Shown here: positions 143 through 36,394 of the stretch, one piece after another
Layout: each line of letters begins with the position of its first letter
Position numbering within the stretch: the first letter of the stretch is position 1
NCBI GenBank assembly: GCA_031459715.1
Contig: JAVKIA010000001.1
Location: 144,824 to 208,823, forward strand
Direction of reading: 5' to 3'
Source: Candidatus Humicultor tengchongensis
Lineage (GTDB): Bacteria > Sysuimicrobiota > Sysuimicrobiia > Sysuimicrobiales > Humicultoraceae
Length of the DNA stretch: 64,000 nucleotides
The notes under the pieces: generated by a model
Told to the model about the DNA's origin: nothing
Databases searched by the model: none
Seen by the model: the letters and a program-made list of their open reading frames with translations, nothing else
Program-made: the position numbers and the translations under genes

Positions 143-3601
<3,459 letters not shown>

Positions 3602-3667
3602 GCGCGTGTCCGGGAGCCGCGGAGGAGGGCGTTCCGCTACAATAGGGAGGCCGGAGCGGGGTCGGTC

Positions 3668-4822
3668 ATGGCCAGAGAAGTCTACGCGGAGGAGATCGAG
3701 CAGTTCCTGGAGCGGCTGGAAGGGGTGGCCTCAGCCCGCGTCGTGGCCAACCAGGAAGGGCAGATCGAGCGCATCTTCCTGACCACGGAGAGCGTACGCG
3801 ATGACGGGGGGCTGCGCCGCCAGGTCAGCGCGGCACTGATGAGCGAATACGGCCTGCCCATCGAAGGGTGGCGCCTGCAGATCGCGCACCTGCGGCCCGA
3901 GCCCGGTCGGGTGCCTCCCGCCCGCTTCCGTCTATTCCGCATCGAGGAGACACTGACCGAGAGCGCCACGCGTGTCCTGGTGGACCTGCGGTACGACCGT
4001 CAGGGGGCGCAGAAGCAGGCGGTGGGGGTGGCCCAGTCCTCGCCCGGCGCCGCCTTCCGCCTGCGCACCGTGGCCCAGGCGACGCTGGAGGCCGCGAGCA
4101 GGGTCCTGGAGGACGTGGGGTGGAAGGCCGCCCTGGAGTCGGTGGCGGTGGTGCCCTTCGCCGGTGTCTCCGTGGCGCTGGTCGGGCTCACCCTGGCCGC
4201 CGCTGGCGGGGAGGTGGAGGGACCTCTGGTCCAGGTCGGCGGCGAGGTGGTGCGGACCAGCGAGACGGAGGCGGTGGTGAAGGCGACGCTGCGGGCGCTG
4301 GGACAGCTGCCCGACGAGGAGCTGCCGCGGCCGCGGGACCGGTGGAGCCGCATGGAGGAGATGCGTGCCCACTACCAGCGTCTCATCCGCCTTCCACAGG
4401 CCCCGCCATCCCCCGCGGCGCAGGGTCAGGCGCAGGCCGGTCCCCCGGCCAGTCCCCCTGGACAGGAGACCGTGGAGGACACCATCGCCAGCGTGCAGGA
4501 GATTCGTCCGGAAGTGCAGGGAGGTGCAGGGATGGCCACACGCGAGGAGCCGTACCGCGCCGAGGGCGGTCGCCCTGAAGGCGGCCGCGCCCCACGGGGC
4601 GGGATGGAAGACGACTTTTACCGCCGGCTGATCCACAGCGGGGTCGCCGTCCACATCCGCTGTCGCGACGGCTATGAGATCCCCGAGGCGGTGGTGCGGG
4701 ACTTCGGGACCTACAGCCTGCTGGTGCAGGCCCGGGGGGTGGAGGAGCTGATCTTCAAGCACGCCATCATCTCCATCCGCCCTCGGGCCCTCCTGCCACG
4801 GGAAGTCCCGGTGCAGGCCTAG
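3668..4822 (+). CDS. Hfq (Sm-like) domain protein with a ~300-aa uncharacterised N-terminal extension
   Basis: The C-terminal ~60 aa, '[56 protein letters not shown]', align with the Hfq Sm1/Sm2 region. The N-terminal 300 aa has no recognisable family, a Pro/Gly-rich linker and possible internal repeats. Confidence 0.6.
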
Positions 4823-4839: not shown

Positions 4840-6411
4840 GTGGGCGACCTGCAGAAGAGGGAGGCCCCCGTGGATCGGCTGGACGAGCTCCGCCGCCGCG
4901 CCCAGGCGGTCCTGGCCATGGGCGGCGAGGAGCGGATCCGCCGGCAGCATGCCGCGGGCAAGCTCACCGCCCGCGAGCGCCTGGACCTGCTGCTGGACGC
5001 GGGATCGTTTGTGGAGCTGGACCGCTTCGTCACCCACCGCGGCCGGGAGTTCGGCCTGGACCGGGTGGAAGCCCCGGCCGACGGCGTGGTCACCGGCTGG
5101 GGGACCATCGACGGCCGTCCGGTAGCCGTCTTCTCCCAGGACTTCACCGTGCTGGGCGGGTCGCTGGGTGAGGGGCACGCCGGGAAGATCGTCAAGGTCA
5201 TGGACCTGGCGCTTGGTAGCGGCATCCCCATCATCGGCCTCAACGACTCGGGCGGAGCCCGCATCCAGGAAGGGGTGGCCGCGCTGGGGGGGTACGCTGA
5301 GATCTTCCTGCGCAACGTGCTGGCCTCCGGCGTCGTCCCGCAGATCTCCGCGGTGCTGGGCCCCTGCGCCGGCGGCGCCGTCTACTCGCCGGCCATGACC
5401 GATTTCATCATCATGGTGCGCGGCACGTCCTACATGTACGTCACCGGCCCGCAGGTGGTGAAGGCAGTGACCCGCGAGGAGGTCAGCCACGAGGAGCTGG
5501 GCGGGGCGGGGGTGCACGCCACCAGGAGCGGCGTGGCCCACTTCGTGGCCGACGACGACGAGGAGGCTCTGGGGCTGGTGCGCCGGCTGCTGGCCTACCT
5601 GCCGCAGAACAACGTGGACGATCCGCCGCGCCTGGAGCCCAGCGACGACCCGGCGCGCATGGACGACGCCCTGAACACGCTGGTTCCGGAGGACCCGGCC
5701 AGGCCCTACGACATGCGCGAGGTCATCCGGCGCGTCGTCGATCACGGAGAGTTCCTGGAGGTGCACCGCGACTTCGCCCCCAACCTGCTGGTGGGCTTCG
5801 CCCGCCTCCACGGCCGGTCCGTCGGCATCGTGGCGCAGCAGCCCGCGGTGCTGGCCGGGGTGCTGGATATCGACTCCTCGGACAAGGGCGCCCGCTTCGT
5901 CCGTTTCTGTGACGCCTTCAACATCCCGCTGCTCACCTTCGTGGACGTGCCGGGGTTCATGCCGGGGACGGCCCAGGAGGCCGGCGGGATCATCCGTCAC
6001 GGGGCCAAGCTCCTCTACGCCTACTGCGAGGCCACAGTGCCCAAGCTGACGGTGATCACGCGCAAGGCCTACGGTGGAGCCTACGATGTGATGAGCAGCC
6101 GGCATATCCGCGGCGACCTGAACCTGGCCTGGCCCACCGCCGAGATTGCGGTGATGGGACCGGAGGGAGCCATCGATATCATCTTCCGCAAGGAGCTGGC
6201 TGAGGCCGAGGATCCCGAGGCGCGTCGCCGCAAGCTGGTTGACGCCTACCGCGCTCAGTTCGCCAACCCCTATGTGGCCGCCGCCCGCGGCTACATCGAC
6301 GACGTCATCGAACCGCGGGAGACCCGCCCCCGCCTCATCGCCGCCCTGGAGGTCCTGCAGGGCAAGCGCCAGCCAACCCCCAAGCGCAAGCATGGCAACA
6401 TCCCTCTCTGA
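4840..6411 (+). CDS. pccB: Acyl-CoA carboxylase carboxyltransferase subunit (propionyl-CoA carboxylase beta chain-like)
   Basis: GTG start. Typical carboxyltransferase motifs: '[21 protein letters not shown]', '[26 protein letters not shown]' and 'GGAYDVMSS'. 523 aa. Confidence 0.8.
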
Positions 6412-6412
6412 G

Positions 6413-7576
6413 ATGGATAGCGCCGACGTGGTGGTCATTGGCGGTGGGTGCACCGGCACCAGCACAGCCTTCCAGCTGGCGCGCCGGGGGGCGGGCCGCG
6501 TCCTACTGCTGGAGCAGGATCAGGTGGGAGGCGGGCCCACGGGTAAGTCCAGCGGCATCGTCCGCCTGCACTACTCTCTGGAGCCGTTGATCCGCCTGGC
6601 CCGGCGCAGCCTGGAGATCTTCCAGCGCTTCGCCGACCTGGTGGGGGGGACTGCCGACTTCCGCAGCACCGGGTTCCTCCTGCTGGCCGGAGAGGCCGAC
6701 CGCCCCCGGCTGGAGGCCAACGTCCGCCTGCAGTCCGCTCTGGGCGTGCGCACCTCGGTGCTCGGGCCGCACCAGCTGGCGGAGCTGGAACCGGCCATGC
6801 GCCTGGAGGACGTAACCGCGGCCGCCTTCGAGCCGGACTCCGGGTATGCCGACGGACACGCCACCAGCACATCGTTCGCCGCGGCGGCGCGACGCCACGG
6901 CGCGGTCGTCTCCCCCGGCACCGCCGCCAGGCGCATCGTCGTGGAGCGCGGCAGGGTGCAGGGGGTAGAGACCGATGCCGGGTGGATCCGCACCGCTCGC
7001 GTCCTGGTGGCCGCCGGACCGTGGACACCGCGCCTGCTGGAGCCGCTGGGCGTTCGCCTGCCCATCCGCGCCGTGCGCGTGCAGGTGGCCGCAGTGTATA
7101 TATCCGCGGTGGTCATCCGGCGGATCTGCGGCGACCTGCTGCGGGGCTTCTACCTGCGGCCCGATGTGGGCGGTCAGGTACTCCTGGGATCTCTGCAGGA
7201 GGCCGACGAGCAGGAGGTCTCCGTCGACCGCTACGACCAGGGGCTGGACTTCGCCTTCGCCGAGCGCGTGGGGCGGTGGCTGGCCTGGCGGTACCCGGCA
7301 GCGGCGGAGGGAGAAGTGCGCGGCGGGTTTGCCAGCCTCTACGACGTCACCCCCGACTGGCAGCCGGTGCTGGGGCCGGTGGAGGGTGTGGAGGGGCTCT
7401 TCGTCGCCGCGGGGTTCAGCGGACACGGTTTCAAGCTCAGTCCCGCCCTGGGCGAGGTCCTGGCGCAGTACCTGCTCGGCGAGCGTCCCGCCATCGACCT
7501 GGGGATCTTTCGTCCCTCGCGCTTCGTGGAAGGGGCCCTCATCCGCAGCCCCTACGAGTACGGCATTCTGGGCTGA
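6413..7576 (+). CDS. FAD-dependent oxidoreductase (DAO / glycine-sarcosine oxidase-like family)
   Basis: ATG 1 nt after the pccB stop. N-terminal Rossmann dinucleotide motif 'VVVIGGGCTGTSTAFQLARRG'. C-terminal 'GFSGHGFKLSPALGE', typical of the DAO family. Confidence 0.75.
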   Translation: MDSADVVVIGGGCTGTSTAFQLARRGAGRVLLLEQDQVGGGPTGKSSGIVRLHYSLEPLIRLARRSLEIFQRFADLVGGTADFRSTGFLLLAGEADRPRLEANVRLQSALGVRTSVLGPHQLAELEPAMRLEDVTAAAFEPDSGYADGHATSTSFAAAARRHGAVVSPGTAARRIVVERGRVQGVETDAGWIRTARVLVAAGPWTPRLLEPLGVRLPIRAVRVQVAAVYISAVVIRRICGDLLRGFYLRPDVGGQVLLGSLQEADEQEVSVDRYDQGLDFAFAERVGRWLAWRYPAAAEGEVRGGFASLYDVTPDWQPVLGPVEGVEGLFVAAGFSGHGFKLSPALGEVLAQYLLGERPAIDLGIFRPSRFVEGALIRSPYEYGILG

Positions 7577-7700
7577 GCCGCCTGGCACCGCCCTGCTCTG
7601 GCCATGGAGCACCCTGCCCTCCTACAGGAGTCTCCCGGTGCAAGGGTGAATACCCTACCCGCGCCCGACCTCTGTGAGCACTCGAGGACTACGTGTCGCC

Positions 7701-8174
7701 ATGAAACTGGAGCACGTCGACCCCGGCGACAGGAAGTTCCGGGACTGGATGCGCCACTACCGCGAGGAGATCAACGGGGAGGCGCCTCCGGAGGAGTGGC
7801 TGGACCAGTACCTGAAGGTCCTCTTCCGGGACCAGGGCAAGACGCGACACATCTGGTGGGCGGTGGACCAGGGACGGAAGGTGGGCTTCGCCATCGCCAC
7901 CCTGCAGCGGGGGATGGTGGACGGGCGGGCCCAGGGGATGATTGCCGAGTTTTTCATCTACCCGGAATACCGCCGTGAGGGGCTCGGCCGCCGCCTGGCC
8001 GAGGCGGTGATCACCTTCCTCAAGGCGCAGGGCGCGGGCGAGATCTACGCCGCCGTGGTGGCGGGCAACGTCCGCGGGCTGCGCTTCTGGGAGGCGTGCG
8101 GGTTCCAGATCGCCCGCTACTCCATGGTCTACCGGCCGGACGCCCGGCGTGAGGAGGAGGACGAAGAGCTCTGA
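7701..8174 (+). CDS. GNAT-family N-acetyltransferase
   Basis: Acetyl-CoA-binding motif 'YRREGLGRRLAEAV' and GNAT core 'WWAVDQGRKVGFAI...IAEFFIYPEYR'. The ATG at 7701 is in frame with ORF 7674. Confidence 0.7.
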   Translation: MKLEHVDPGDRKFRDWMRHYREEINGEAPPEEWLDQYLKVLFRDQGKTRHIWWAVDQGRKVGFAIATLQRGMVDGRAQGMIAEFFIYPEYRREGLGRRLAEAVITFLKAQGAGEIYAAVVAGNVRGLRFWEACGFQIARYSMVYRPDARREEEDEEL

Positions 8175-8247
8175 GGAGTGAAGGAAGCGCTGCCGTCGCA
8201 GGTCTTGCTGATCCCGCTCCTCTGCGTGCGGTGTCTCTCATCTTCCG

Positions 8248-9741
8248 GTGCGCATCCGCCGCCTGCTGATTGCCAACCGCGGTGAGATTGCCGTCCGCAT
8301 CATCCGGGCGTGCCGCGCGCTGGGTGTCGTCCCCCTGGCCGTCTTCTCCCCGGTGGACCGGAGCGCGCCGCACGTGCGCCTGGCGGCGGAGGCCTGGCCG
8401 CTGCCGGGCGACTCTCCGGCTGAATCCTACCTGAACATCCCCCGCCTGCTGGAGATCGCCCGCGCCGCAGAGGCCGACGCCCTCCACCCCGGCTACGGCT
8501 TCCTCGCGGAGAACCCGGCCTTCGCCGCCGCCTGCGCCGCCGCGGGGGTGATCTTCGTGGGTCCGCCGGCCGAGGTGCTGGCGCGGTGTGGCGACAAGGT
8601 GACGGCCCGGCAGCGGATCGCCGCCGCCGGCGTCCCGGTCCTGCCGGGAACCGGAGCGGTGGACGACCGGGAGGCAATCGCTGCCGCCGATGTGGTGGGC
8701 TATCCGCTGCTGATCAAGGCGGTTGGGGGCGGAGGGGGAAAGGGAATCCACCTGGTGGAGTCGGCGGCTGACCTGCCATCAGCGCTGCGGCTGGCCCGGG
8801 GAGAGGCGGTCGCCGCCTTCGGCGACCCGCGGCTGTACCTGGAGCGGTGGCTGGACCGTCCGCGGCACGTGGAGGTGCAGGTGCTGGCCGACGCCCGCGG
8901 GGAGGTCGTCCACCTGGGGGAACGGGAGTGCTCGGTGCAGCGGCGCCACCAGAAGGTGATCGAGGAGTCCCCCGCGCCAGCCCTGACCCCCGCGCTGCGC
9001 GACCGCCTGGGTATGGCGGCGGTGGCCGCGGCCCGCGCCGTGGGGTACGTCAACGCCGGGACGGTGGAGTTCCTCCTGGACGGGGAGGCCTTCTACTGCA
9101 TCGAGGTGAACGCGCGGCTGCAGGTGGAACACCCCGTCACAGAGATGGTGACGGGGGTGGACCTGGTGGAGGCGCAGCTGCGCATCGCCGGGGGCGAGCC
9201 GCTGTGGTTGGGTCAGGACCAGGTGGTCCTGCGGGGGCACGCCATCGAGTGCCGCGTGGGCGCCGAGGACCCGCACCACGGCTTTCTCCCGTCGCTGGGG
9301 GTGATTGTGGAGGTGCGCGAACCCGCAGGGCCGGGCGTGCGGGTGGACAGCGGACTTGTGCCGGGGCTGCCGGTGTCACGGTACTACGATCCGCTGCTGG
9401 CCAAGGTGATCACCTGGGGTCCCTCCCGCTCCACCGCCCTCGACCGCATGGCCGCCGCTCTGGACGAAATGGCCGTCTCCGGCGTGCGGACCACCCTGCC
9501 CTTCCTCCGCTGGGCAGTGCGCGATCCGGCATTCCGCGCGGGGGCCTACGACATCCGCTTCGCCCAGCGCTGGGACCGGCGGCTGGACGAGCAGCCACCG
9601 GACCGGGAGGCGCAGGAGGTCTCGGTGATCGCCGCCTCCCTCTGGACCCACCAGCGGCTGCGGGCAAGGGCGCGTCGCCAGGTGCCGGCGGATGGCTGGC
9701 AGCGGGTGGCCCGGCTGGAGGCGCTGCGAGGCGGGATGTGA
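8248..9741 (+). CDS. accC: Biotin carboxylase (ATP-grasp) subunit of the acyl-CoA carboxylase
   Basis: GTG start. 'RRLLIANRGEIAVRIIRA', 'CGDKVTARQ', an ATP-grasp fold and 'EVNARLQVEHPVTE'. It has no C-terminal biotinyl domain; that is a separate ORF. Confidence 0.85.
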   Translation: MRIRRLLIANRGEIAVRIIRACRALGVVPLAVFSPVDRSAPHVRLAAEAWPLPGDSPAESYLNIPRLLEIARAAEADALHPGYGFLAENPAFAAACAAAGVIFVGPPAEVLARCGDKVTARQRIAAAGVPVLPGTGAVDDREAIAAADVVGYPLLIKAVGGGGGKGIHLVESAADLPSALRLARGEAVAAFGDPRLYLERWLDRPRHVEVQVLADARGEVVHLGERECSVQRRHQKVIEESPAPALTPALRDRLGMAAVAAARAVGYVNAGTVEFLLDGEAFYCIEVNARLQVEHPVTEMVTGVDLVEAQLRIAGGEPLWLGQDQVVLRGHAIECRVGAEDPHHGFLPSLGVIVEVREPAGPGVRVDSGLVPGLPVSRYYDPLLAKVITWGPSRSTALDRMAAALDEMAVSGVRTTLPFLRWAVRDPAFRAGAYDIRFAQRWDRRLDEQPPDREAQEVSVIAASLWTHQRLRARARRQVPADGWQRVARLEALRGGM

Positions 9742-10265
9742 AGTACGTCGTCAGCGGCGCCGGCCTCGATGTGGAGGTAGAGGTGGTGGAGGTCCCCGGT
9801 GGAGGCTACCGCGTCCGCCTGGAGGGGAAGGAGTATGATGTCCGATGGAATCCCGCCCTGGGCGGCACGCACTGGTGGCTGGAGTGGGACAGCCGGCGGC
9901 AGGTCGTGGTGGTGGAGTCTGAGGGCGACCTGGTGGGCGTGACACTGGCGGTCGACCACCTGGATCTCCGGGTGGCTCCGGCCAGTCCCCTGCACCGTCC
10001 AGGCCGTGCGCCGGACCGGGCGCTGCCCGCGGTAGAGGTGCGCGCGCCGATGCCCGGGCTGCTGGTGGCCGTGGAAGTACGGGCGGGCCAGGCGGTGGGC
10101 GCCGGAGAGGCGGTGGCGGTGATCGAGGCGATGAAGATGCAGATGGAGCTCCGCACGCCCGCAGCGGGGACGGTGCGGGAGGTGCGGGCGAGCGCCGGCG
10201 GTGAGGTCTCAGCCGGAGACGTGATCGTGGTGCTGCAACCGGATCGGGCAGCGGGGGCGGTGTGA
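9738..10265 (+). CDS. Biotin carboxyl carrier protein (biotinyl/lipoyl attachment domain)
   Basis: GTG overlaps the accC stop (ATGTGA). The C-terminus, '[38 protein letters not shown]', carries the AMKM biotinylation motif. The start is uncertain. Confidence 0.65.
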
Positions 10266-10266
10266 G

Positions 10267-11828
<1,562 letters not shown>

Positions 11829-11832
<4 letters not shown>

Positions 11833-21115: not shown

Positions 21116-22287
21116 CGCGCCGCGATCTCCGGGGCGAGCCTGACCCTGGCCGCGGTACCCAGCGTGGCCAGGAGGAAGAGGAGGAAGACCGCGCTGCTGC
21201 TCAGGAACGGGGCACGGATGTCCACGGCGTAGATCATCCCCGCCCACAGCGGCCCCACGGTGCGCCCCAGGCTGTCGAAGGCCGTCTGCACGCCCATGGC
21301 CAGACCGAGCCCCTGCTCTGCCCGTTTGGACAGCAGCGAGGTGATCGCAGGTCTAATGAGCGCCAGTCCAGCCCCGATAAGCACGACGCAGGCGACGACC
21401 ACCGGTACGGAGGCGCTGGCCGCCGTGAGCGCAAAGCCGATCGCCCCCAGCACCAGGCCCGCGCAGGTGACGGCCACCTCACCCCAGTGCCGGATCAGCG
21501 GTCCCACCAGCCCGAACTGGAGGATCACCCCCGCCACCCCCAGCAGGGTGAAGGCTACGCCCACCTGTGTCGGGCTGCCTGCCAGGCGGTCGATGAAGTA
21601 GTACCCCAGCATGCTGAACATGGCCGAGCCGCCGAAGGTGGCCCCGAAGGCCAGCCAGAAGAGGATGCTGTAGGGGCTGCGTACCGCTGCCCAAACTCCG
21701 CGCCACAGCGGCCGGCGCATCCTCGTCACCCGCGATGGGGGCTCGCGCAGCAGCAGCAGGCCCACGGGCGCAGCTGCCACGCCCAGGGCGCCGGCCACCA
21801 GGAAGGGCACGGCCAGGCCCAGCGGCGCCAGCGCTCCGCCGATGGCCGGCCCAAACATGAACCCCAGGGAGAAGACGCCGCCTATGGCTCCCATGGCCGC
21901 TCCCCGGCGCTCCGGTTCTGTGAGGTCGGCGACCATGGCCTGGGAGGTGGGGAGGGCCGCGCTGGAGAGCAGGCCCCCGGCCAGACGCGCCACCAGCAGC
22001 GCCAGGTACGAGCGGGCCAGGGCCATGAGGAAGAAGGTCAGCCCGAAGCCGAGGACGCCTACCAGGAGCACCGGCTTGCGCCCCACGCGGTCAGAGACAT
22101 CGCCCCACAGCGGCGCGGTGAGGAACTGGGCCGCTGCCCACACCGTGACCAGCAGGCCCATCTGCACAGGGCTGGCGTCGACGCGGCGGGCCAGGAAGGG
22201 AAGCGTGGGGATGACGATGCCAAACCCGACCATCATGATGAACAGGGTCAGCAAGAGCAGCAGGATCTGGACGGTGGGACGGTGCAT
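21112..22287 (-). CDS. MFS transporter (DHA1-type, 12 TM)
   Basis: Internal ATG at 22287 ('MHRPTVQILLLLL...'). MFS motif 'GDVSDRVGRKPVLL'. 391 aa. Its stop shares a CTAG with the convergent SUKH gene. Confidence 0.8.
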   Translation of the reverse strand: MHRPTVQILLLLLTLFIMMVGFGIVIPTLPFLARRVDASPVQMGLLVTVWAAAQFLTAPLWGDVSDRVGRKPVLLVGVLGFGLTFFLMALARSYLALLVARLAGGLLSSAALPTSQAMVADLTEPERRGAAMGAIGGVFSLGFMFGPAIGGALAPLGLAVPFLVAGALGVAAAPVGLLLLREPPSRVTRMRRPLWRGVWAAVRSPYSILFWLAFGATFGGSAMFSMLGYYFIDRLAGSPTQVGVAFTLLGVAGVILQFGLVGPLIRHWGEVAVTCAGLVLGAIGFALTAASASVPVVVACVVLIGAGLALIRPAITSLLSKRAEQGLGLAMGVQTAFDSLGRTVGPLWAGMIYAVDIRAPFLSSSAVFLLFLLATLGTAARVRLAPEIAAR

Positions 22288-22489
22288 GCTCGGGATCCGG
22301 CGCTCACCCCTTCGGCACGCGGGGTGCCTGCTTCCTGCTTCGTGTGTCGCAGCCGTTCTCTCCCTCCGCGCTGCGCCCGATGGCGCAGGGCGCGCCAACC
22401 ATCTACAATGCGGAAGGTTCCACGCTCCGGGTGAATCCGTCGCGCCCTGCCAGGAGACCCCCGAAGGACGCGACGTTCGGAGGTTGCCC

Positions 22490-23848
22490 ATGAAGGCGCT
22501 GTTGACGAAGAGTTGTCTGCTCCTTTCCCTGGTCGTGTTCGCCTCAGCCCCTGCGCTCTGGGCGCAGACGGCGCCGCCGGCTCTTGAAGTGCGGCCCATC
22601 ACCCTGAGCCAGGCCCTGCTCACGGCACTGCAGAACAACCTGGCGCTGCGGATCGCCCTCTTCGAGGTGCAGGTCACGCAGGCGCAACTGGCGCAGGCCC
22701 TGGCGGCAAGAAGCGGCGCCCTGACCGGCACCCTGGGCTACACCCGCACTAGTGAGCGTGTCACCAGCTTCGTCATCCCGGCCAACGCCTTCGGACCGGG
22801 GCTGCCTCCTGTGGAGACGACCATCACCTTTCCGGTCTCCCCCAACGTCTACGTGGTCAACCTGGGCTACCAGTACCCCGTCTACAGCGGCGGACGGCTG
22901 GAGGCGCAGATCGCCCTGGCCCGGGCGGGGGTGAAGGGAGCGGAGGCGGCGCTGGAGCGGACCAAGCAGGAGGTAGCTTTGCAGACCAAGCTCGCCTACT
23001 TCCAGGTGCTGGTGGCGCAGGCGGGGCTGCAGGTGGCACAGCAGAACGTGGCGCAGGCGGAGGAGACCCTGCGCATCGCCCAGGCCCGCGTGCGGGCGGG
23101 GACCTCGCCCCGCTTCGACGAGATCCAGGCGGAGGTCAACCTGGCTAACGCCCGCCAGGGGCTGCTTCGTGCCCGCAACGGCGTTGCCGTGGCCACACAG
23201 GGGCTGGCCGCGATACTGGCCCTGCCGCTGGATGCGGCCCTCCACCCGCAGGAGACCATGGAGGTGGTCCCGGTGACGGCCTCGCTAGCCGACCTGGTGG
23301 CACGCGGCCTGCGGGAGCGGCCGGAGCTGGCCGAGCATCAGGCGAAGGTGGAAGCGGCGGAGGCGGCGCTGGAGCTGGCTCGGACCGGAGGGCGGCCGGT
23401 GGTGGGATTGAGCGGGGGACTCTCCCTGGACGGCCTGGGCACCGGCGCCGTGGCCCTGGGGTGGAGCATCGGTCTGGCCGCCACTTTTCCCCTCTTCGAT
23501 GGTGGCATCACCGCGGCGAAGATTCGAGAGGCCGAACTGCGACTGGAACAGCTCAAGGTGGTGGGGGCACAGCTTCGCCAGTCCATCGAGCTGCAGGTGC
23601 GGCAGGGGGTCCTCAACCTGGGAGCGGCGGCAGAGGAGGTGAGCACGGCCAGGGCTGCCATCGAGCAGGCGCGCGAGGCGCTGCGCATCGCCCAGGTCCG
23701 CTTCCGCGAGGGAGTGGGCACCAACCTGGAGGTGATCTCGGCCCAGGCCGCCCTGGCCCAGGCCGAGGGGGCGAGGGTGCAGGCGCTGTTCTCCTACAAC
23801 ACCGCCCGCGCTCAGCTGGAGCGGGCGGTGGGCGGGCCGGTGCAGTAG
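22490..23848 (+). CDS. TolC-family outer-membrane efflux protein
   Basis: Signal peptide 'MKALLTKSCLLLSLVVFASAPALWAQ', then two TolC repeats ('LSQALLTALQNNLALRIA...', 'LADLVARGLRERPELAE...'). SD ggagg 7 nt upstream. Confidence 0.8.
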   Translation: MKALLTKSCLLLSLVVFASAPALWAQTAPPALEVRPITLSQALLTALQNNLALRIALFEVQVTQAQLAQALAARSGALTGTLGYTRTSERVTSFVIPANAFGPGLPPVETTITFPVSPNVYVVNLGYQYPVYSGGRLEAQIALARAGVKGAEAALERTKQEVALQTKLAYFQVLVAQAGLQVAQQNVAQAEETLRIAQARVRAGTSPRFDEIQAEVNLANARQGLLRARNGVAVATQGLAAILALPLDAALHPQETMEVVPVTASLADLVARGLRERPELAEHQAKVEAAEAALELARTGGRPVVGLSGGLSLDGLGTGAVALGWSIGLAATFPLFDGGITAAKIREAELRLEQLKVVGAQLRQSIELQVRQGVLNLGAAAEEVSTARAAIEQAREALRIAQVRFREGVGTNLEVISAQAALAQAEGARVQALFSYNTARAQLERAVGGPVQ

Positions 23849-26037: not shown

Positions 26038-26114
<77 letters not shown>

Positions 26115-27186: not shown

Positions 27187-27204
27187 AGACCGACGCGTCG
27201 GTCT
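27187..27204. promoter_or_regulatory. Perfect 18-bp palindrome AGACCGACGCGTCGGTCT just upstream of the men operon
   Basis: Self-complementary over all 18 nt. Lies 5 nt 5' of the first possible menF ATG (27210) and 36 nt 5' of the SD-supported ATG (27240). Candidate operator for a dimeric regulator, or an RNA hairpin. Confidence 0.35.
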
Positions 27205-27239
27205 ATCCCATGACCCCGAACCAGGACGGTGGAAGAAGC

Positions 27240-28736
27240 ATGGCAACCACGCCGGCCGGCACACACCGTGTCGACATGGCCGTTGCCCCGCTGATTCAGG
27301 GGCTCAGAGCCGCGTCGACGGTGGGCCGGCGGGTCGCCGCGCGTCAGGGGCGTCCGGTTCTGGTCTGGACCTCGGCCGCCGTTCCGGCGGTCGATCCCAT
27401 CGCTCTCTTCGAACGCGCCGCCGGGTTCGGGGCGGCACGGCTGCTGTGGGCGCGCCCGGCCGATGGGGAGAGTCTCGTAGGGATTGGGGCGGCCTGGGAG
27501 GCCACGGCGGAAGGCCCGGCGCGGTTGGGCGCGGTGGGGGATGCATGGCGCCGCTGCCTGGCTGAGGCAGTAGGTGTAGGCGATGGAGCCGGTCCGGCGG
27601 CGATGGGCGGCTTCGCCTTCGCTCCCACCGTCGATCCCCGGTCTCCGTGGCGCACGTTCCCGGCCGGCTGGCTGCTGGTACCGTGGCTGGTGGTTCGCAC
27701 AACCGGCGCAGGCTCTCAGGCGGTGCTCAGCACGCTGGTGCCCCCCGACGGCGACGGCACTTCCCCGTACAACGATGGCAGCTCCCTGCACGACGCCACG
27801 CACCTGGCCGCGTTGCTGGATCCGCAGGACGGGCCGGGGCGTCCGCAGCCTGTGCAGCCCGCCTCCTACCGCGTGCAGAACACGGTCACGACGGCTCCGC
27901 CGGTCGCGGAAATCCCGGCGACTTCACGCTGGAAGGCGCTGGTCGTCGAGGCCGCGGCGGCCGTGCGCGGCGGCGCGCTTCGCAAGGTGGTACTTGCGCG
28001 CGCCGTGACGGTGGACGGGGTGACGACCGGCCTGGCCACGGCGCTGCACCGCCTGCGCACCGCCTACCCGGGGTGCGCGCTGTTTGCGGTGGCCCGCGGC
28101 GACCTCTGCTTCCTGGGTGCGACCCCCGAGCGCCTGTTGCGGGTGCGAAACGGTGTGGTGAGCACCGGAGCCCTGGCCGGGTCGGCTCCCCGGGGCACGG
28201 CGCCGGAAGAGGACGAGTACCTGGGCCAGGTGCTGCTCGCCAGCTCCAAAGACCGGCTGGAGCACGCGCTGGTCGTGGAAGCGGTCCGCGACGCGATGAC
28301 CGCGGCGTGTGACGACGTGGTGGCCCCGCCCACCCCGGTCCTGCTGCGCATGCCCAACGTACAGCACCTCTATACGCCGCTGCGGGGGCGCCTGCGCGCC
28401 CCGCTGGAGATCCTGGAGCTGGCCAGCCGCCTGCATCCCACCCCTGCTGTGGGCGGCGTCCCCCAGGAGGCGGCCCTGAAGTGGATCGCCCGGCACGAGG
28501 GGTTCGAGCGTGGGTGGTACGCGGGCGTCGTAGGCTGGCTGGATGGGGCCGGCGACGGCGAGCTGTCGGTGGCCATCCGGTGTGCACTGCTGCGCGGCCG
28601 GCGCGCCACGTTGTTCGCCGGGTGCGGCATCGTGGGCGACTCCGATCCGGAGGCAGAGTACGCGGAGTCATGCCTGAAGCTGCGCCCCCTGGCCGAGGCG
28701 CTGGACGCGCCCGGGGCGCTCCATGGCTGCCGCTGA
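27240..28736 (+). CDS. menF: Isochorismate synthase (menaquinone-specific)
   Basis: Chorismate-binding C-terminal domain ('LHPTPAVGGVP...WYAGVVGWLDGAGDGELSVAIRCAL...AGCGIVGDSDPEAEYAE'). The ATG at 27240 has an SD ggtgga; the alternative ATG at 27210 has no SD. Confidence 0.8.
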   Translation: MATTPAGTHRVDMAVAPLIQGLRAASTVGRRVAARQGRPVLVWTSAAVPAVDPIALFERAAGFGAARLLWARPADGESLVGIGAAWEATAEGPARLGAVGDAWRRCLAEAVGVGDGAGPAAMGGFAFAPTVDPRSPWRTFPAGWLLVPWLVVRTTGAGSQAVLSTLVPPDGDGTSPYNDGSSLHDATHLAALLDPQDGPGRPQPVQPASYRVQNTVTTAPPVAEIPATSRWKALVVEAAAAVRGGALRKVVLARAVTVDGVTTGLATALHRLRTAYPGCALFAVARGDLCFLGATPERLLRVRNGVVSTGALAGSAPRGTAPEEDEYLGQVLLASSKDRLEHALVVEAVRDAMTAACDDVVAPPTPVLLRMPNVQHLYTPLRGRLRAPLEILELASRLHPTPAVGGVPQEAALKWIARHEGFERGWYAGVVGWLDGAGDGELSVAIRCALLRGRRATLFAGCGIVGDSDPEAEYAESCLKLRPLAEALDAPGALHGCR

Positions 28737-30546
28737 GCCTGGCCGCGCACCGCTAGCGCCCGAGAACGCCACCTATGCGTTCGTCGGCGCCCTGGTCGAC
28801 GAGCTGGTCCGGGCGGGTGTGCGTCACTTCTGCCTGTGCCCGGGATCCCGCTCGACACCGCTGGCCATGACGGCAGTCCGGCAGGGGGGCCTGAAGGTCT
28901 GGATGCACGTGGACGAACGCGCGGCCGCTTACTTCGCGCTGGGCCTGGCCAAGGCCTTGCGCTCGCCAGTGGCAGTGGTATCCACCTCGGGAACCGCGGC
29001 CGCCAACTTCCTCCCGGCGGTGATCGAGGCCCGGTTCGGCCGGGTACCGCTGCTGGTGCTTACCGCGGACCGGCCGCACGAGCTACGCGACGCCGGCGCC
29101 AACCAGACCATCGATCAGCTGCGGCTCTTCGGGGTGCAGGTGAAGTGGTTCGCGGAGGTTGCCCCGCCGCTGGCTACGGAGGCGATGCTGCGGTACGCGC
29201 GCCAGCTGGCAGCCCAGGCCACCTTCCACGCGGTTGAGGCGCCCGCAGGACCCGTGCACCTCAACTTCCCCTTCCGCGAGCCGCTAGTTCCCGTACCCGC
29301 ACCCAACGAGCTGCCCCCCACGGACGATCGCGCCGGACCTGCCTGGGAGGGCCGTGCGGAGGGGCAGCCTTACACGGTCGCGCTGCACGCCGTCCGGGCC
29401 CCGGATGCGGCGGTTGCGCGGGCGCTGGCTGGCATCGTGGGCGCCGCGCGGCGCGGCCTGATCGTCTGCGGGCCGCAGGACGATCCGGCCTTCCCCCAGG
29501 CGCTGACACGGCTGGCGGATGTGGTTCGCTTCCCGGTGCTGGCCGATCCGCTGTCCGGGGTGCGGTGCGGCCCCCACGACCGCAGCCTGGTGGTGGATGC
29601 CTATGATCTCGTCCTGCGCGCCGATCGCGCTGCGGCCACCCTCGAGCCCGACCTGGTCCTGCGCTTCGGCGCCATGCCGGCGTCGCGGCCGCTGCTGCAG
29701 TACCTGCAGCGCCACAGCCGGGCGCGGCAGGTCGTGGCCGACGGTGCCCGGTGGAGCGACCCCCTGCGCGTGGCCGCGCAGATCCTGGCAGCCGACCCAC
29801 GGCTGGTGTGCGAGGCCCTGACGGCGGCGCTGGCCGGTCACCGGCCCGCGCCGGCGCAGGAGGAGTGGACCGACCGCTGGCTGGAGCTGAGCTGCTCCGC
29901 CCGCGCCGCTGCCGCCCGCCGCCTGCTGGAGATCACCGAGCCGTTTGAGGGCAGGGTGTTCGCCGAGCTGGGGGCGCTGCTGCCCGATGGTGCGCTGCTG
30001 GTGGTGGGCAACAGCATGCCGGTGCGCGACCTGGACACCTTCCTGCCGTCGGTGCCCACGCGCCTGCGCGTGCTCGGCAACCGCGGCGCCAGCGGCATCG
30101 ACGGCCTGCTCTCCACCGCCCTGGGCGCCGCTGCGGCCGCCGCCGGCCCGGTGGTGGCCGTCCTGGGCGACCTGGCGTTCTACCACGACATGAACGGCCT
30201 GCTGGCGGCCAGGCTGCACGGGCTGGCGGCCACCATCGTGCTGCTCAACAACAACGGCGGCGGGATCTTCAACTTCATGCCGCAGGCAGCGTACCCGGCC
30301 TACTTCGAGGCGCTCTTTGGGGTGCCCCACGGGCTGGAGTTCCGCCATGCGGCCGATCTGTACGGCGCCACCTACGCGGTTTTCGAAGGATGGAGCGCCT
30401 TTGGCCAACAGGTGCGCGCGGGCCTGGCCCGGTCGGGGCTGACCATCGTGGAGATTCAGACCGATCGGGGGCGCAATGTCCGTCTGCACCAGGAGATCTG
30501 GGCCAGCGCCGCCGAGGCGCTCGGCGCCGGCCTGTCCACGAGGTGA
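28723..30546 (+). CDS. menD: 2-succinyl-5-enolpyruvyl-6-hydroxy-3-cyclohexene-1-carboxylate synthase (ThDP-dependent)
   Basis: ThDP-enzyme N-terminus '[30 protein letters not shown]' and ThDP motif '[12 protein letters not shown]...NNNGGGIF'. Confidence 0.85.
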
Positions 30547-30550
30547 GAGG

Positions 30551-31369
30551 ATGCCCGTGAACTGGATGAAAGTACGTGAGTACACAGATATCGTCTACGA
30601 ACAGGCTGATGGGATGGCCAAGATCACCATCAACCGGCCTGAGGTCCGCAACGCCTTCCGCCCGCAGACCATCGTCGAGCTGATCGACGCCTTCACCCAC
30701 GCCCGCGAGGACCCAGCCGTGGGGGTCATCCTGTTCACCGGAGCGGGGACCGAGGCCTTCTGCTCGGGCGGGGACCAGCGCGTGCGCGGAGACGCCGGCT
30801 ACCTGGACGAGACGGGAATCCCACGCCTCAATGTGCTGGACCTGCAGCGGCTGCTCCGGGTGCTTCCCAAACCCGTGATCGCGCTGGTCGCGGGCTACGC
30901 CATCGGCGGCGGCAACGTGCTGGCCACCGTCTGCGACCTCACCATCGCCGCCGAGAACGCTGTTTTCGGCCAGACCGGGCCAAAGGTCGGCTCGTTCGAC
31001 GCGGGCTACGGGTCCACTTACCTGGCCCGCATCGTGGGTCACAAGAAGGCCCGGGAGATCTGGTACCTATGTCGCCAGTACACGGCGCAGCAGGCGCTGG
31101 AGATGGGGCTGGTCAACGCCGTGGTGCCGCTGGAACAGTTGGAGGAGGAGGGCATCCGGTGGGCCCGGGAAATCCTTGAGAAGAGCCCGCTGGCCATCAG
31201 GCTGCTCAAGGCGGCGTTCAACGCCGACACGGACGGACTGGCCGGCATCCAGCAGCTGGGCGGCGACGCCACGCTGCTGTACTACCTGACCGATGAGGCA
31301 AAGGAAGGGCGCGACGCCTTTCTCCAGAAGCGCCGACCCGACTTCTCCAGGTTCCCCCGCTATCCGTGA
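30551..31369 (+). CDS. menB: 1,4-dihydroxy-2-naphthoyl-CoA synthase (crotonase fold)
   Basis: '[23 protein letters not shown]', 'FCSGGDQ', '[19 protein letters not shown]' and '[14 protein letters not shown]'. Confidence 0.9.
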
Positions 31370-32280
31370 CTGCCCGCCCTTCCGTGGCTCCGGAGCGCCG
31401 GCCCGTCTCCCGCCGGCGCGCCTGGGTGCATGCGGCGCGTATCCCCACGCTGCCGGCGGCCGTGGCCCCGGTGCTGGTGGGCAGCGGCGCCGCAGCCGCT
31501 GCAGGCGGGTTTGACGCGCCGGCAGCGCTGGGGGCGCTGGTGGTGGCCCTGGCCATCCAGATCGGCACCAACCTCCACAACGATGCCGCGGACTTCCTGC
31601 GTGGCACCGACGCGACACACCGACTGGGTCCGCCCCGCGTCACCCAGGCCGGCTGGCTTGCGGCGCACGAAGTGCTGGCCGGCGCCTACGCATGTTTCGG
31701 CCTGGCGGCGCTGGTGGGGCTTCTCTTCGTCTGGCGGTGGGGGTGGCCGGTGCTGGCGGCGGGGGGACTTTCCATCCTGGCCGCCCTAGCCTACACCGCT
31801 GGGCCCTGGCCGCTCGGCTACCACGGCCTGGGCGAAGTGTTCGTCTTCCTCTTCTTCGGCGTCGTGGCCACCGCCGGAACCGCCTTCGTTCAGTTGGGAC
31901 GGATCAGCCCGGCCGCGCTGGCGGCCTCGGTCCCGGTGGGCCTGCTGTGCGCAGCGATCCTGGTCGCCAACAACCTGCGCGATGTGGCCAGCGACGCCCT
32001 GGCGGGCAAGCGCACCCTGGCGGTGCGCCTGGGTCCGGATCGGACCCGTGTGCTCTACGAGGTTTTGCTGGCCGCCGCCGTGGCCGCACCGCCGGTTCTG
32101 CGGCTGGCCGGGCTGGCCGGGCGGTGGTTCTGGCTGCCCTGGCTGGCCCTGCCCGAGTTCCTGGCGCTGGGGCACGCCGCGTGGTGGCACCATGAGGCGC
32201 CCGCGCTGGTGGCCGTCCTGAAGCGCACGGCCCGGCTGCACCTGGTTTACGGGGCGCTTTTGGGCGCCGGCCTGCTGTGA
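31366..32280 (+). CDS. menA: 1,4-dihydroxy-2-naphthoate polyprenyltransferase (UbiA family)
   Basis: About 8 TM helices with UbiA Asp-rich motifs '[12 protein letters not shown]' and 'NNLRDVASD'. Confidence 0.8.
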
Positions 32281-34508
32281 GGCAGACCGACGCGGGCCAC
32301 GCGGCCCTGCACACCCCCGACTGGCTCGCCTACCGCGCCGCCGTCTCCCCAAGCCACCTGGCGCTGGTTGCCGGCGCCGAGCGGCTGACGTTCACCGACC
32401 TCGACCGCCGGGCTGGGGCTCTGGCCCGACGCCTGAGGCATGCGGGTGTGTCAGCCGGCGACCGCGTGGCGGTCCTCCTGCGCAACGGCCCGGCCTACGT
32501 CGAGGTGACCTTCGGCCTGGCGCGCGCAGGCGCCGTGATGGTACCGCTGAACACGCGCCTGGCCCCGCCGGAGATTGCCTGGCAGCTGACGGACAGCAGC
32601 GCCCGGTGGCTGGTGTGCGAGGAGCGTACGGCCGCACAGGTACCCGGGATCTCCCCGGACCTCTGCCTGGTGGTCGTAGAGGAGCTGGCCCGGGAGCCCG
32701 AGGGCGAGGTGACGCTGGACGACCGGTGGCACCTCTCCCGCGTGCAGGGCATCGTTTACACCTCGGCCACGACGGGCCGCCCCAAGGGGGCACAGCTCAC
32801 CTTCGGCAACCACTGGTGGAATGCCGCGGGCTCGGCGTTGCTCCTGGGTGCGCACCGCGGGGACGCCTGGCTGGCGGTGCTGCCCTTCTTCCATGTCGGC
32901 GGTCTGGCTCTGCTGTGGCGCGGTGTGCTGTACGCCACTCCCCTGGTCGTGCACGATGCCTTCGACCCGGAGGCCGCCAACCGGGCCGTGGACGCAGGGG
33001 AGGTGACCCTGGTCTCGCTGGTGGCTCCCATGCTCCAGCGCATGCTGGACGCCCGCCGGGATCGGCCGTTCCCTCCGACGCTGCGCGCTGTGCTGCTGGG
33101 AGGCGGGCCGACGGGCCGCGACCTCCTCGACCGGTGCGTGGCCCTGGGCGTGCCCGCAGCCCCCACCTACGGGCTGACGGAAGCAGCCTCGCAGGTGGCG
33201 ACGCTGCCGCCGTGGGAGTTCCCGCGGAAGGTCGGTGCATCCGGCCGGCCGCTGTTCCCGGTGGAGCTGTGCATCGATGCACCGCCCGGCGAGGTGGGGG
33301 AGATCCTGGTGCGCGGCCCCACGGTCATGGCTGGCTACTGGAACCGGCCCGAGGAGACCGCGCGGGTGCTGCGCAGTGGATGGCTGCATACCGGCGATCT
33401 GGGCTACGTCGATCCCGACGGTGATCTGTTCGTCGTGGACCGCCGCGATGACCTCATCATCACCGGCGGTGAAAACGTGTACCCCTCTGAAGTGGAGGAG
33501 GCGTTGCGGGCCCACCCCGCCGTGGCCGATGCCGGTGTCTTCGGGATGCCGGACCCCCTGTGGGGCCAGGCGGTCGCCGGGGCCGTGGTCGTCCGCCCAG
33601 GGGCCAGCGTGGACGCCGCTACGCTGGAAGCGTTCTGCGCGGCACGCCTGGCCCGCTACAAGGTGCCGCGGCGCGTCTGGTTCGTCACGGAGCTCCCGCG
33701 GTCGGCCGGGGGGAAGGTGATGCGCCGCGAGCTCCAGGCGCGTTTCGTGCCTTCGGTTCCCGGAAAGCCCACCGGCCCGCGCAGCGTACCGGGCGTCGCC
33801 CTGCCGGCCGCGGTGCCGCGGTGGTGGGTGCGCGACGCCTTCCACGCCATCGCCGGACGCTACGACCTCCTCAACCACCTGCTCAGCGGCGGCCTGCACC
33901 TGGTCTGGAAGCGTGCCGCTGTGCGGGCCGCTGCTCTGGGCCCCGGCGGCCGGGCGGTGGACGTGTGCTGCGGGACGGGGGACCTGCTGGTGGGGCTTGC
34001 CCGCATCGTCGGCCCCGGCGGCCGGGTGCTCGGTGTCGACTTTGCCGCGGGCATGGTGGCCGCAGCGGCCGCCCGCCTGGCACGCCGGCGGCTGGCCGGC
34101 GCTACCGTGCTGCTGGGAGATGCCGAGGCCCTGCCGCTAGGCGACGCGACGGTGGACGCGGCGACCATCGCCTTCGGCCTGCGCAACGTGGCGGACCCTG
34201 CCCGGGCGCTGCGCGAGATGCACCGGGTGCTGCGCCCCGGAGGGCGGTTGGTGGTGCTGGAGTTCGGGCAGCCTCGCCCGTCGTGGTTCCGAGCGCTCTA
34301 CGACCTCTATTCGCGCACGGTGATCCCGCGCTGCGGCGGCTGGCTCTCCGGGCGGCACGATGCCTACCGCTACCTGCACGACTCCATCCGCCAGTGGCCC
34401 GATCCGGAGCAGCTCAGTGACCTCATCCGCGAAGCAGGGTTTGCGCAGGTGCGCTATCACCTCCTGACGCGCGGCATCTCCGTGCTGCACCTGGGCACCA
34501 AGCCCTGA
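32277..34508 (+). CDS. Fusion protein: o-succinylbenzoate-CoA ligase (MenE, aa 1-~495) plus demethylmenaquinone methyltransferase (MenG/UbiE, aa ~518-743)
   Basis: Single uninterrupted frame of 743 aa. AMP-binding motifs ('YTSATTGRPKGA', 'GWLHTGDLGY', '...GKVMRRELQARF'), a ~20-aa Pro-rich linker, then the UbiE signature 'DAFHAIAGRYDLLNHLLSGGLHLVWKR' with SAM motif 'VDVCCGTGDL' and 'LRPGGRLVVLEF'. Confidence 0.8.
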   Translation: MRQTDAGHAALHTPDWLAYRAAVSPSHLALVAGAERLTFTDLDRRAGALARRLRHAGVSAGDRVAVLLRNGPAYVEVTFGLARAGAVMVPLNTRLAPPEIAWQLTDSSARWLVCEERTAAQVPGISPDLCLVVVEELAREPEGEVTLDDRWHLSRVQGIVYTSATTGRPKGAQLTFGNHWWNAAGSALLLGAHRGDAWLAVLPFFHVGGLALLWRGVLYATPLVVHDAFDPEAANRAVDAGEVTLVSLVAPMLQRMLDARRDRPFPPTLRAVLLGGGPTGRDLLDRCVALGVPAAPTYGLTEAASQVATLPPWEFPRKVGASGRPLFPVELCIDAPPGEVGEILVRGPTVMAGYWNRPEETARVLRSGWLHTGDLGYVDPDGDLFVVDRRDDLIITGGENVYPSEVEEALRAHPAVADAGVFGMPDPLWGQAVAGAVVVRPGASVDAATLEAFCAARLARYKVPRRVWFVTELPRSAGGKVMRRELQARFVPSVPGKPTGPRSVPGVALPAAVPRWWVRDAFHAIAGRYDLLNHLLSGGLHLVWKRAAVRAAALGPGGRAVDVCCGTGDLLVGLARIVGPGGRVLGVDFAAGMVAAAAARLARRRLAGATVLLGDAEALPLGDATVDAATIAFGLRNVADPARALREMHRVLRPGGRLVVLEFGQPRPSWFRALYDLYSRTVIPRCGGWLSGRHDAYRYLHDSIRQWPDPEQLSDLIREAGFAQVRYHLLTRGISVLHLGTKP

Positions 34509-34637: not shown

Positions 34638-34806
34638 CCGCGGCCGGCAGTGGCAGCCGCGGCGAGGAAGCGCGCCCCAGAATCCACGGCTCCCACAAGG
34701 GCCGGTCGGTTCACGCGGCGCGGGCGGCCGGAGATGGCCGCCACTCCGTCAGGAGCAAAGCCTGAGGGGCAGGTTCCTCCCGGAATCGGTCTCTCGGGCT
34801 TTTGTC
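34638..34806 (+). promoter_or_regulatory. Structured 5' leader of cimA: two perfect 7-bp GC hairpins plus a terminator-like element directly before the SD
   Basis: Hairpins ccgcggc/gccgcgg (34638-34662) and ggcggcc/ggccgcc (34723-34742). cccg-N12-cggg followed by CUUUUGUC (34779-34806), then SD ggggagg (34811-34817). Candidate attenuator or riboregulator. No T-box or known riboswitch consensus was recognised. Confidence 0.3.
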
Positions 34807-34825
34807 ATCCGGGGAGGATGCGACC

Positions 34826-36390
<1,565 letters not shown>

Positions 36391-36394
<4 letters not shown>

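Follow-up and report, generated by a model that had tools for sequence, protein, structure and literature searches.

What is an Hfq-type Sm domain doing at the very end of a protein of 384 amino acids (aa), and what is the rest of that protein for? The question is raised by a gene in a 64,000-nucleotide (nt) stretch of DNA from Candidatus Humicultor tengchongensis (positions 144,824 to 208,823 of contig JAVKIA010000001.1, assembly GCA_031459715.1; the whole stretch is hereafter called the window). The gene lies at window positions 3668..4822 (+) and is an ATG-to-stop open reading frame (ORF) of 384 aa plus stop. An earlier reading of the letters alone (the sequence-only reading) had proposed that the last ~60 residues are the Sm core of Hfq, and had recognised no family in the remainder. 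We found that the gene encodes an Hfq-type Sm domain joined through a disordered linker to a folded two-domain N-terminal module (N1 and N2, together the N-module), that the N-module also exists as a stand-alone protein in thousands of sequence clusters, and that the fusion is a conserved feature of the CSP1-3/Sysuimicrobiota lineage.

The assignment of the C-terminus to Hfq proved right. The Pfam Hfq model (PF17209; cut-off 27 bits) matched aa 315-373 of the full protein with 24.3 bits, and matched the last 84 aa, searched alone, with 28.3 bits (E-value (E) 1.3e-6), a marginal but consistent result. Among the full-length family members, 47/52 matched the same model at E <= 0.01 (best 4.4e-9). 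A profile of the family matched 34 Hfq structures in the PDB, with T. maritima Hfq (4y91, E 2.6e-7) and B. subtilis Hfq as the best sequence matches, and tblastn with E. coli Hfq found the Sm region of three family loci (E 2e-6 to 5e-4). To these we added two AlphaFold models, both of monomers, one of the full-length protein and one of aa 1-245 only. In the former, the Sm domain (aa 312-373; 4601..4786 (+)) is predicted confidently, with a local confidence score (predicted local distance difference test, pLDDT; AlphaFold2) of 89-97, and DSSP assigns to it an N-terminal helix (aa 313-324) and five strands (aa 327-332, 337-346, 350-355, 358-363 and 367-372). Foldseek superposed it on crystal structures of Hfq from Listeria, Bacillus, Caulobacter, Neisseria, Aquifex and E. 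coli with template-modelling (TM) scores of 0.85-0.93 and root mean square deviations (rmsd) of 0.9-2.1 Å. Since the sequence, profile and fold evidence agree, the identification of the C-terminus as a true Hfq-type Sm domain, though a divergent one marked by an 'IRCRDGYE' motif, is secure. The NCBIfam model for tandem two-Sm Hfq proteins (NF010691) matched weakly (E 0.008-0.11). The protein ends 11 aa past the Sm domain in a short tail (aa 374-384 plus stop; 4787..4822 (+)), which is of low pLDDT at aa 380-384, and has no long Hfq-type C-terminal domain.

To see which surfaces of Hfq are kept, we mapped the Sm alignment of 52 relatives, which was also used for conservation in the rest of the protein, onto E. 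coli Hfq numbering. The YKHAI-like Sm2 motif noticed earlier is present as F-K-H-A/G-I, with K56, H57 and I59 invariant in 52/52 and Phe in place of Y55 in 51/52. The proposed conservation of Gln positions on the proximal RNA-binding face, however, was not borne out: Q8 has become Glu in 51/52 members and Q41 Thr in 50/52. Position 42 stays aromatic (Tyr in 51/52, as in T. maritima), F39 is mostly kept and the K56/H57 pair is invariant. The A-rich site of the distal face is not kept. In place of Y25, L26, I30, K31 and Q52 the family has R, C, Y, E and E, respectively, each in 50-52 of the 52 members, and the replacements form the invariant 'IRCRDGYE' block. The rim residues R16, R17, R19 and K47 are not kept either, the homologous positions being V/I, A/Q/T, G and E; two arginines are found three residues earlier in the Sm helix (FYRRL). 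The net charge of the Sm core is -5 to +1 (median -1), as against +1 to +3 in the cores of E. coli, B. subtilis and T. maritima Hfq. Given that they are invariant across the family, these surface changes appear to have been selected rather than to reflect decay.

Could the two parts of the gene have been joined artificially, by a frameshift or misassembly, or could the likeness to Hfq be due to chance? The identical protein (P0001) was found on 12 contigs from several assemblies, including GCA_031458875.1, GCA_031459065.1 and GCA_031458955.1. A protein database search gave 120 homologues of 34-100% identity, ~100 of them full length (350-460 aa) at 34-89% identity and from independent assemblies. 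In 48 of the 49 species loci that hold both halves, the N-module and the Sm domain lie in a single uninterrupted frame of 336-449 codons. The ORF shows the same coding signature throughout, and its whole stop-to-stop frame has a G+C content of 0.87 at third codon positions (GC3) versus 0.50 at second positions (GC2), as in the other real genes of the window; the local G+C content is ~70-75%. The only hint of an artefact is locus L060 (Bacillati bacterium ANGP1 isolate NP_7, about 6001-7054), the sole case among the 49 in which the halves are out of frame, which could reflect a frameshift, decay to a pseudogene or faulty assembly; no other split version was found among these loci. An artefact is refuted by the conservation of the fusion across assemblies, and is further opposed by significant Hfq profile and fold matches, so that we give it next to no probability. 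The fusion is thus a genuine conserved protein. Many of the homologues carry the database labels 'RNA chaperone Hfq', 'sRNA-binding regulator protein Hfq' or 'hypothetical'; with some members already called Hfq, the fusion has been visible yet uninterpreted.

The fusion is also a signature of one lineage, an uncultivated phylum. In a scan of GTDB with one genome per species, we found 56 fusion loci, and every named record among them belongs to CSP1-3/Sysuimicrobiota or is unclassified (Armatimonadetes bacterium CSP1-3, Candidatus Fervidifonticultor, Geohabitans, Calidihabitans, Thermofontivivens and 'Bacillati bacterium ANGP1').

What, then, is the N-terminal part? Searched separately, aa 1-300 gave no significant Pfam or NCBIfam match, in line with the view that it belongs to no named family. 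It is, however, not featureless but a confidently folded two-domain module, and a protein family of its own. The full-length model has a pLDDT of 81.5 and a predicted TM score (pTM) of 0.48, with the orientation of the domains undefined, and the model of aa 1-245 has a pLDDT of 90.2 and a pTM of 0.72. The first domain, N1 (aa 1-76; 3668..3895 (+); pLDDT 83-97), is modelled with an alpha-beta-beta-alpha-beta topology (helices at aa 7-15 and 46-61, strands at aa 20-27, 33-40 and 70-74), which suggests a ferredoxin-like domain. Its E11 does not vary in any alignment; within the fusion proteins the same holds for L14, R24, G31 and T39. Structural analogues of N1 found by Foldseek were weak (E about 1e-2) and comprised FliF RBM2 (ring-building motif) and C-terminal domains of zinc transporters; weak matches to the Pfam family ZT_dimer were seen in 3/59 N-module relatives.

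The second domain, N2, consists of two beta-beta-beta-alpha units. The first (aa 87-149; 3926..4114 (+); pLDDT >90) has strands at aa 87-96, 101-111 and 114-124 and a helix at aa 128-149, with G120, A122, R131, R133, A138 and A142 conserved; the second (aa 152-212; 4121..4303 (+)) has strands at aa 152-164, 167-178 and 187-194 and a helix at aa 199-212, with E157, G191, A206, L208 and A210 conserved. Two divergent repeats had been suspected here from the sequence. The duplication is real (hhalign of aa 85-150 against aa 151-214: probability 77%, E 2e-5, 57 columns), but the units are ~63 aa long and not the ~90 aa supposed. N1 has a net charge of -5 and N2 is neutral.

N2 is followed by a basic amphipathic helix (aa 225-240; 4340..4387 (+); pLDDT 73-88, net charge +4), which is present in fusion proteins only; its motif begins at D224, and conservation reaches 90% or more at D224, R225 and E230. 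Then comes the linker. It had been placed at about aa 230-300 and described as rich in Pro, Gly and Ala; it is indeed a disordered Pro/Ala/Gly/Glu-rich segment, but spans about aa 241-311 (4388..4600 (+); pLDDT 39-57). Of its 71 residues 12 are P, 11 A, 11 G and 8 E, its net charge is -3, its alignment columns are rich in indels and its length varies from 49 to 137 aa across the family. Amid these hypervariable flanks stands a conserved motif, [E/Q]-I-R-P-E-x-x-G-G-A (aa 278-287; 4499..4528 (+)), whose residues I, R, P, E, G, G and A are present in 42-50 of the 52 family members. A sequence search of the N-module against the PDB returned noise only (best E 0.078, an unrelated reductase). A weak match to CheZ (E 0.12-0.28) is noise.

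The only strong non-Hfq match of the fusion protein in Foldseek, with one structural library searched, was to the isopropylmalate synthase LeuA of M. tuberculosis (3hps_B, 1sr9_B and 3fig_A). It was obtained with both models, at E 4e-5 to 7e-5 and probability 1.0 over ~183 columns, and is the best structural match of the N-module. The regulatory domain of LeuA, like N2, consists of two beta-beta-beta-alpha units. Leu binds to this domain, which also forms the dimer (PMC9860122). The corresponding Pfam family, LeuA_dimer (PF08502) of isopropylmalate and citramalate synthases, is the only one that recurs among N-module relatives (10/59, best E 7.5e-4). For one relative, P0313, the match had E 2.5e-4 and a sub-threshold 21.4 bits (cut-off 24.9), and the two matches with printed coordinates (P0140 and P0313) map to the second unit of N2. 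We read N2 as having, as far as the models tell, the fold of the LeuA regulatory domain, and do not call it a member of the PF08502 family. Unlike LeuA, the fusion protein carries, according to Pfam, neither the HMGL-like catalytic barrel nor the HCS_D2 accessory domain. Elsewhere in the window, a leuA/cimA-like gene at 34766-36394 (+) encodes a genuine LeuA_dimer domain (97 bits), so this genome has a true LeuA regulatory domain in addition to the LeuA-like N2; a second HMGL-like synthase, at about 43442-44700 (+), has no LeuA_dimer domain.

The N-module is not confined to the fusion. A profile of aa 1-245 retrieved many proteins, 205-245 aa in length, whose alignments cover the whole of N1 and N2 (aa 1-215) at E 1e-36 to 1e-56. 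An exhaustive hidden Markov model search, counted in clusters at 50% identity, gave 4185 clusters at E <= 1e-3, 2980 at 1e-10 and 839 at 1e-30. Nearly all of the 4185 are 205-245 aa long, and the only recurrent fused partner is Hfq; among the best 150 clusters, the long members that were checked carry Hfq or nothing recognisable. E11, G31, V105, G120, A138, A142, E157, G191, A206, L208 and A210 are common to the stand-alone and fusion forms. The stand-alone proteins end right after N2 and lack the basic helix, the linker with its motif and the Sm domain. We found no Pfam model for them and no PDB sequence match, NCBIfam gave no match on eight members, and our literature search found no paper that describes the N-module family. 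Some members are named 'predicted nucleic-acid-binding protein' in IMG, and one, WP_012448484.1 of Natranaerobius thermophilus, is a 'hypothetical protein'. N1 and N2 together thus form an independent, widespread and unannotated protein family.

We inspected nine genomic contexts of stand-alone genes, from metagenome-assembled genomes (MAGs) of Fimbriimonadales, other MAGs, metagenome contigs and cultured Natranaerobius thermophilus. In 7/9, one or two HD_5/HD-GYP genes come right after the gene, and in 6/9 DUF5317 follows. Translation-related surroundings are frequent: the pheS-pheT pair precedes in 3/9, the gene for the hibernation factor hpf is close upstream in 3/9, and an hpf...secA-prfB region surrounds two of the genes. 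The nine are not wholly independent of one another, since the gene order is the same at L004 and L067. The conserved trio of N1+N2 protein, HD-GYP (HD_5) phosphohydrolase(s) and DUF5317 was seen at loci L004, L005, L067, L068, L069, L073 and L074, in many cases behind pheS-pheT or close to hpf/secA/prfB, and the Natranaerobius thermophilus protein WP_012448484.1 belongs to one such trio. No paper mentioning DUF5317 was found in the literature search.

Our interpretation of the fusion protein, to which we give a probability of roughly 55%, is that of an Hfq-like ring that binds RNA under the control of a module which dimerises and may sense a ligand, with ligand gating being much less certain than the rest. 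The Sm domain would probably assemble into an Hfq-like ring and bind RNA through the retained proximal pocket, formed by the aromatic residue at position 42, the invariant Lys56/His57 and the FKHAI Sm2 motif. Given the remodelled distal face, the lost arginine rim and the neutral-to-acidic charge, its RNA recognition is expected to differ from that of enterobacterial Hfq. More tentatively, N2 may pair with N2 as LeuA regulatory domains do, tying together neighbouring protomers or two rings; it may also bind a small ligand at its Gly/Ala/Arg-rich helix starts, so that the module would gate or localise the RNA-binding ring. It is possible, though somewhat more doubtful still, that the acidic linker with its IRPExxGGA motif is self-regulatory, acting from the N-terminal side in the manner of the C-terminal tail of E. 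coli Hfq, which is reported to regulate the core (PMC5606850). The most specific form of this proposal, in which the N-module is a receptor for an amino acid (as in LeuA) or for a nucleotide messenger processed by HD-GYP enzymes, and ligand-driven pairing of N2 switches the RNA-binding ring on or off or alters its assembly state, we consider unlikely.

Several observations weigh against this interpretation. The NCBIfam Hfq models scored below their cut-offs (TIGR02383, 26-30 bits against 61.7; NF001602, 17.5-21.7 against 95), and by NCBI's rule the protein is therefore not an equivalog of housekeeping Hfq. The change of Q8 to Glu and the neutral-to-acidic core could, to judge from these residues, weaken RNA binding. 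On the side of N2, the Pfam scan gave no LeuA_dimer match in the fusion protein of the window itself, and the Foldseek match to LeuA came without a report by the tool of which LeuA residues were aligned. Profile-profile comparison by hhalign was not significant, either against E. coli LeuA alone (probability 0.5%) or against an alignment of 122 LeuA_dimer sequences built around the window's own LeuA regulatory domain (P 0.098, colinear, 102 columns); for this reason we do not claim homology of N2 with LeuA. HD_5/HD-GYP and DUF5317 genes were found neither in the window nor at any of the 56 fusion loci, so that the signalling context of the stand-alone genes may not carry over to the fusion, and the GerMN and carboxylase genes that do flank it may reflect lineage-wide synteny and offer no functional clue.

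How do other explanations compare? The N-module might be a second RNA surface, made of a dsRBD-like N2 (dsRBD, double-stranded RNA-binding domain) and an RNA-binding ferredoxin-like N1, which, for example, holds the duplex annealed by Hfq and senses no small molecule. Indeed, dsRBD proteins come next after LeuA in Foldseek (Loqs-PB 8dfv_K, E 4e-4; TARBP2 7zpk_C, E 7e-4; further matches are the MLE dsRBDs and Loqs dsRBD1), but at low TM scores of 0.14-0.2, rmsd of 15-21 Å and probabilities of 0.4-0.85, versus 1.0 for LeuA. Helix 128-149, strands 152-194 and helix 199-212 of N2 follow one another in dsRBD order, so that the alpha-beta-beta-beta-alpha topology fits aa 128-212, and the conserved R131 and R133 sit at a helix start; the start of helix 199-212, however, is acidic (S-E-T-E, with D/E in relatives), where dsRBDs carry a basic KKxAK motif that contacts RNA. 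The fusion to Hfq is itself a guilt-by-association hint of RNA binding, as is the name 'predicted nucleic-acid-binding protein', and stand-alone genes lie after pheST or near hpf in 6/9 contexts. The strongest linkage of the stand-alone genes, though, is to HD-GYP/DUF5317 and not to RNA genes, and the acidic N1 and neutral N2 do not favour RNA contacts. We regard such a bipartite RNA binder as improbable, though less so than the explanations that follow.

The doubt may instead be placed on the Sm ring, which could have been repurposed as an oligomerisation scaffold, or as a peptide or small-molecule site, that arrays six N-modules and takes no action on RNA; the protein would then really do what the N-module family does, perhaps taking part with HD-GYP enzymes in signalling by nucleotide second messengers. 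The Glu at position 8, the replacement of the whole distal face by the invariant 'RCRDGYE', the loss of the rim, the median core charge of -1 and the scores under the NCBIfam equivalog thresholds would all fit such a ring, as would the linkage of the N-module to HD-GYP genes in stand-alone contexts. There is a precedent in the 'Hfq' of Borrelia, an Hfq-annotated protein that turned out to be FlgV (PMC11607428). Unlike FlgV, however, the fusion protein has the Hfq fold at an rmsd of 1-2 Å, with the invariant K-H pair and the aromatic residue of the uridine pocket; arginines persist on the N-terminal helix of the Sm domain (FYRRL) and in the segment just before it, and the signalling genes are missing near every fusion locus. 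On balance a ring without a role in RNA binding seems to us a distinctly unlikely explanation. Less likely again is that an ordinary housekeeping Hfq, the only one of the lineage, simply gained an upstream gene, leaving an N-module that works independently of the Sm ring. Fusions of unrelated neighbour genes do occur, and the undefined domain orientation in the full-length model (pTM 0.48) and the long and variable linker are compatible with such a neutral appendage. But the fusion has been kept in every one of ~50 species across families, at 34-89% identity and, apart from the out-of-frame L060, in no split version, and it has conserved elements of its own, namely helix 225-240, IRPExxGGA and the remodelled Sm surface.

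The surroundings of the fusion gene are conserved as well. Its upstream neighbour encodes a GerMN (Germane) protein with a hydrophobic N-terminus (3068..3601 (+); PF10646, E 2.5e-21), whose start overlaps the ligA stop and after which the fusion gene begins 66 nt further on; the downstream neighbour, 18 nt past the fusion stop, is an acyl-CoA carboxyltransferase gene (Carboxyl_trans in Pfam; 4840..6411 (+)). GerMN is found upstream in 46/56 species loci and the carboxyltransferase gene downstream in 48/56, and several of the loci that lack one or the other are cut by contig ends. The conserved order is ligA-GerMN-fusion gene-carboxyltransferase, and the order thrB-ligA-GerMN-gene given by the sequence-only reading agrees with the ORF list and Pfam matches of the window. 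Its remark that the gene is not next to miaA also holds, as neither miaA nor hflX was found within the 64-kilobase (kb) window; a check of the same window for a separate canonical hfq found none. A scan around the gene found no terminator-like site between the GerMN, fusion and carboxyltransferase genes, the only such site being inside the downstream gene, and a consensus promoter scan found no promoter-like site near the fusion gene. By eye, a TACAAT hexamer and a GGGAGG purine tract can be seen 18-31 nt upstream of the ATG at 3668 (window 3637-3667).

Further along the window, the downstream genes form a propionyl-CoA carboxylase/methylmalonyl-CoA mutase/MeaB block (4840-11832 and 8248-9741 (+)) whose gene order the phylum has retained. 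At 21674-23848 (+) lies the gene for a TolC-like outer-membrane efflux protein (OEP, 213 bits), whose presence in one window with GerMN, a protein of sporulation/germination type, may bear on the cell-envelope type of the phylum. The sole Rfam or ARAGORN match in the 64 kb is a single tRNA-Met (CAT) at 26038-26114 (+). In a menaquinone-type cluster (27189-34508), after menF-, menD-, menB- and menA-like genes, a stop-free ORF of 770 aa (32196-34508 (+)) combines an AMP-binding MenE-like part (aa 46-507) with a UbiE/COQ5 methyltransferase (aa 545-769) and looks like a MenE-MenG fusion.

Although the function of the protein is inferred, its existence would surprise an Hfq specialist and opens a very large family without annotation to testing. 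A phylum-wide Hfq with a folded, sensor-like N-module and a remodelled distal face would widen the notion of what an Hfq is, and would suggest that a direct coupling of RNA chaperone activity to metabolic or signalling input is possible, in a lineage that is abundant in soils and hot springs. The fusion may also serve as a 'Rosetta stone', linking the unannotated family of 4185 clusters both to RNA biology and to the HD-GYP/DUF5317 genes, and so yielding testable hypotheses on both sides. Were the ligand-gated form of the proposal true, the protein would be the first RNA chaperone of bacteria to contain an allosteric sensor of its own, and more than 4000 unannotated protein clusters would gain a function, with the fusion as the post-transcriptional effector of a signalling pathway. 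Our literature search found no N-terminally extended multidomain Hfq and no Hfq in Armatimonadota or CSP1-3; Hfq goes unmentioned in the main text of the CSP1-3/Sysuimicrobiota phylum papers searched, and the supplements of the Sysuimicrobiota paper have no hfq or miaA entry.

How does the fusion protein relate to known Sm proteins? With canonical Hfq (E. coli, B. subtilis YmaH, T. maritima, L. monocytogenes; PF17209) it shares the Sm fold, the FKHAI form of the Sm2 motif and the aromatic residue at position 42. It differs in having 384 aa instead of 70-110 aa, with a structured N-terminal module of 240 aa and a 70-aa linker in place of the C-terminal tail; in the replacements Q8E, Q41T, Y25R, L26C, I30Y, K31E and Q52E and the absence of the rim arginines 16, 17 and 19; and in its locus, between GerMN and carboxyltransferase genes and not in the often-seen miaA-hfq-hflX order. 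The protein is thus an Hfq in fold, and probably works like one, but it lacks several defining features of a housekeeping Hfq: equivalog score, distal face, rim, size and locus. To our knowledge, the variation described for Hfq lies entirely in the disordered C-terminal tail or in tandem copies of Sm. C-terminally extended Hfqs, such as the variants with long C-terminal domains of Acinetobacter and Moraxella (PMC11617691), and the tandem two-Sm proteins (NF010691) resemble the fusion protein in that the Sm core tolerates appended sequence; their extensions, however, are C-terminal and disordered or a second Sm copy, whereas the fusion protein carries two unrelated folded domains on the N-terminal side. 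The principle of combining Sm with other folded domains is the same in the multidomain Sm proteins of eukaryotes and archaea, such as Ataxin-2, LSm14, Edc3 and archaeal SmAP3 (see also PMC3710371). In these proteins, in contrast, the Sm domain is generally N-terminal, the partner domains are unrelated to the N-module and the Sm domain does not belong to the Hfq subfamily.

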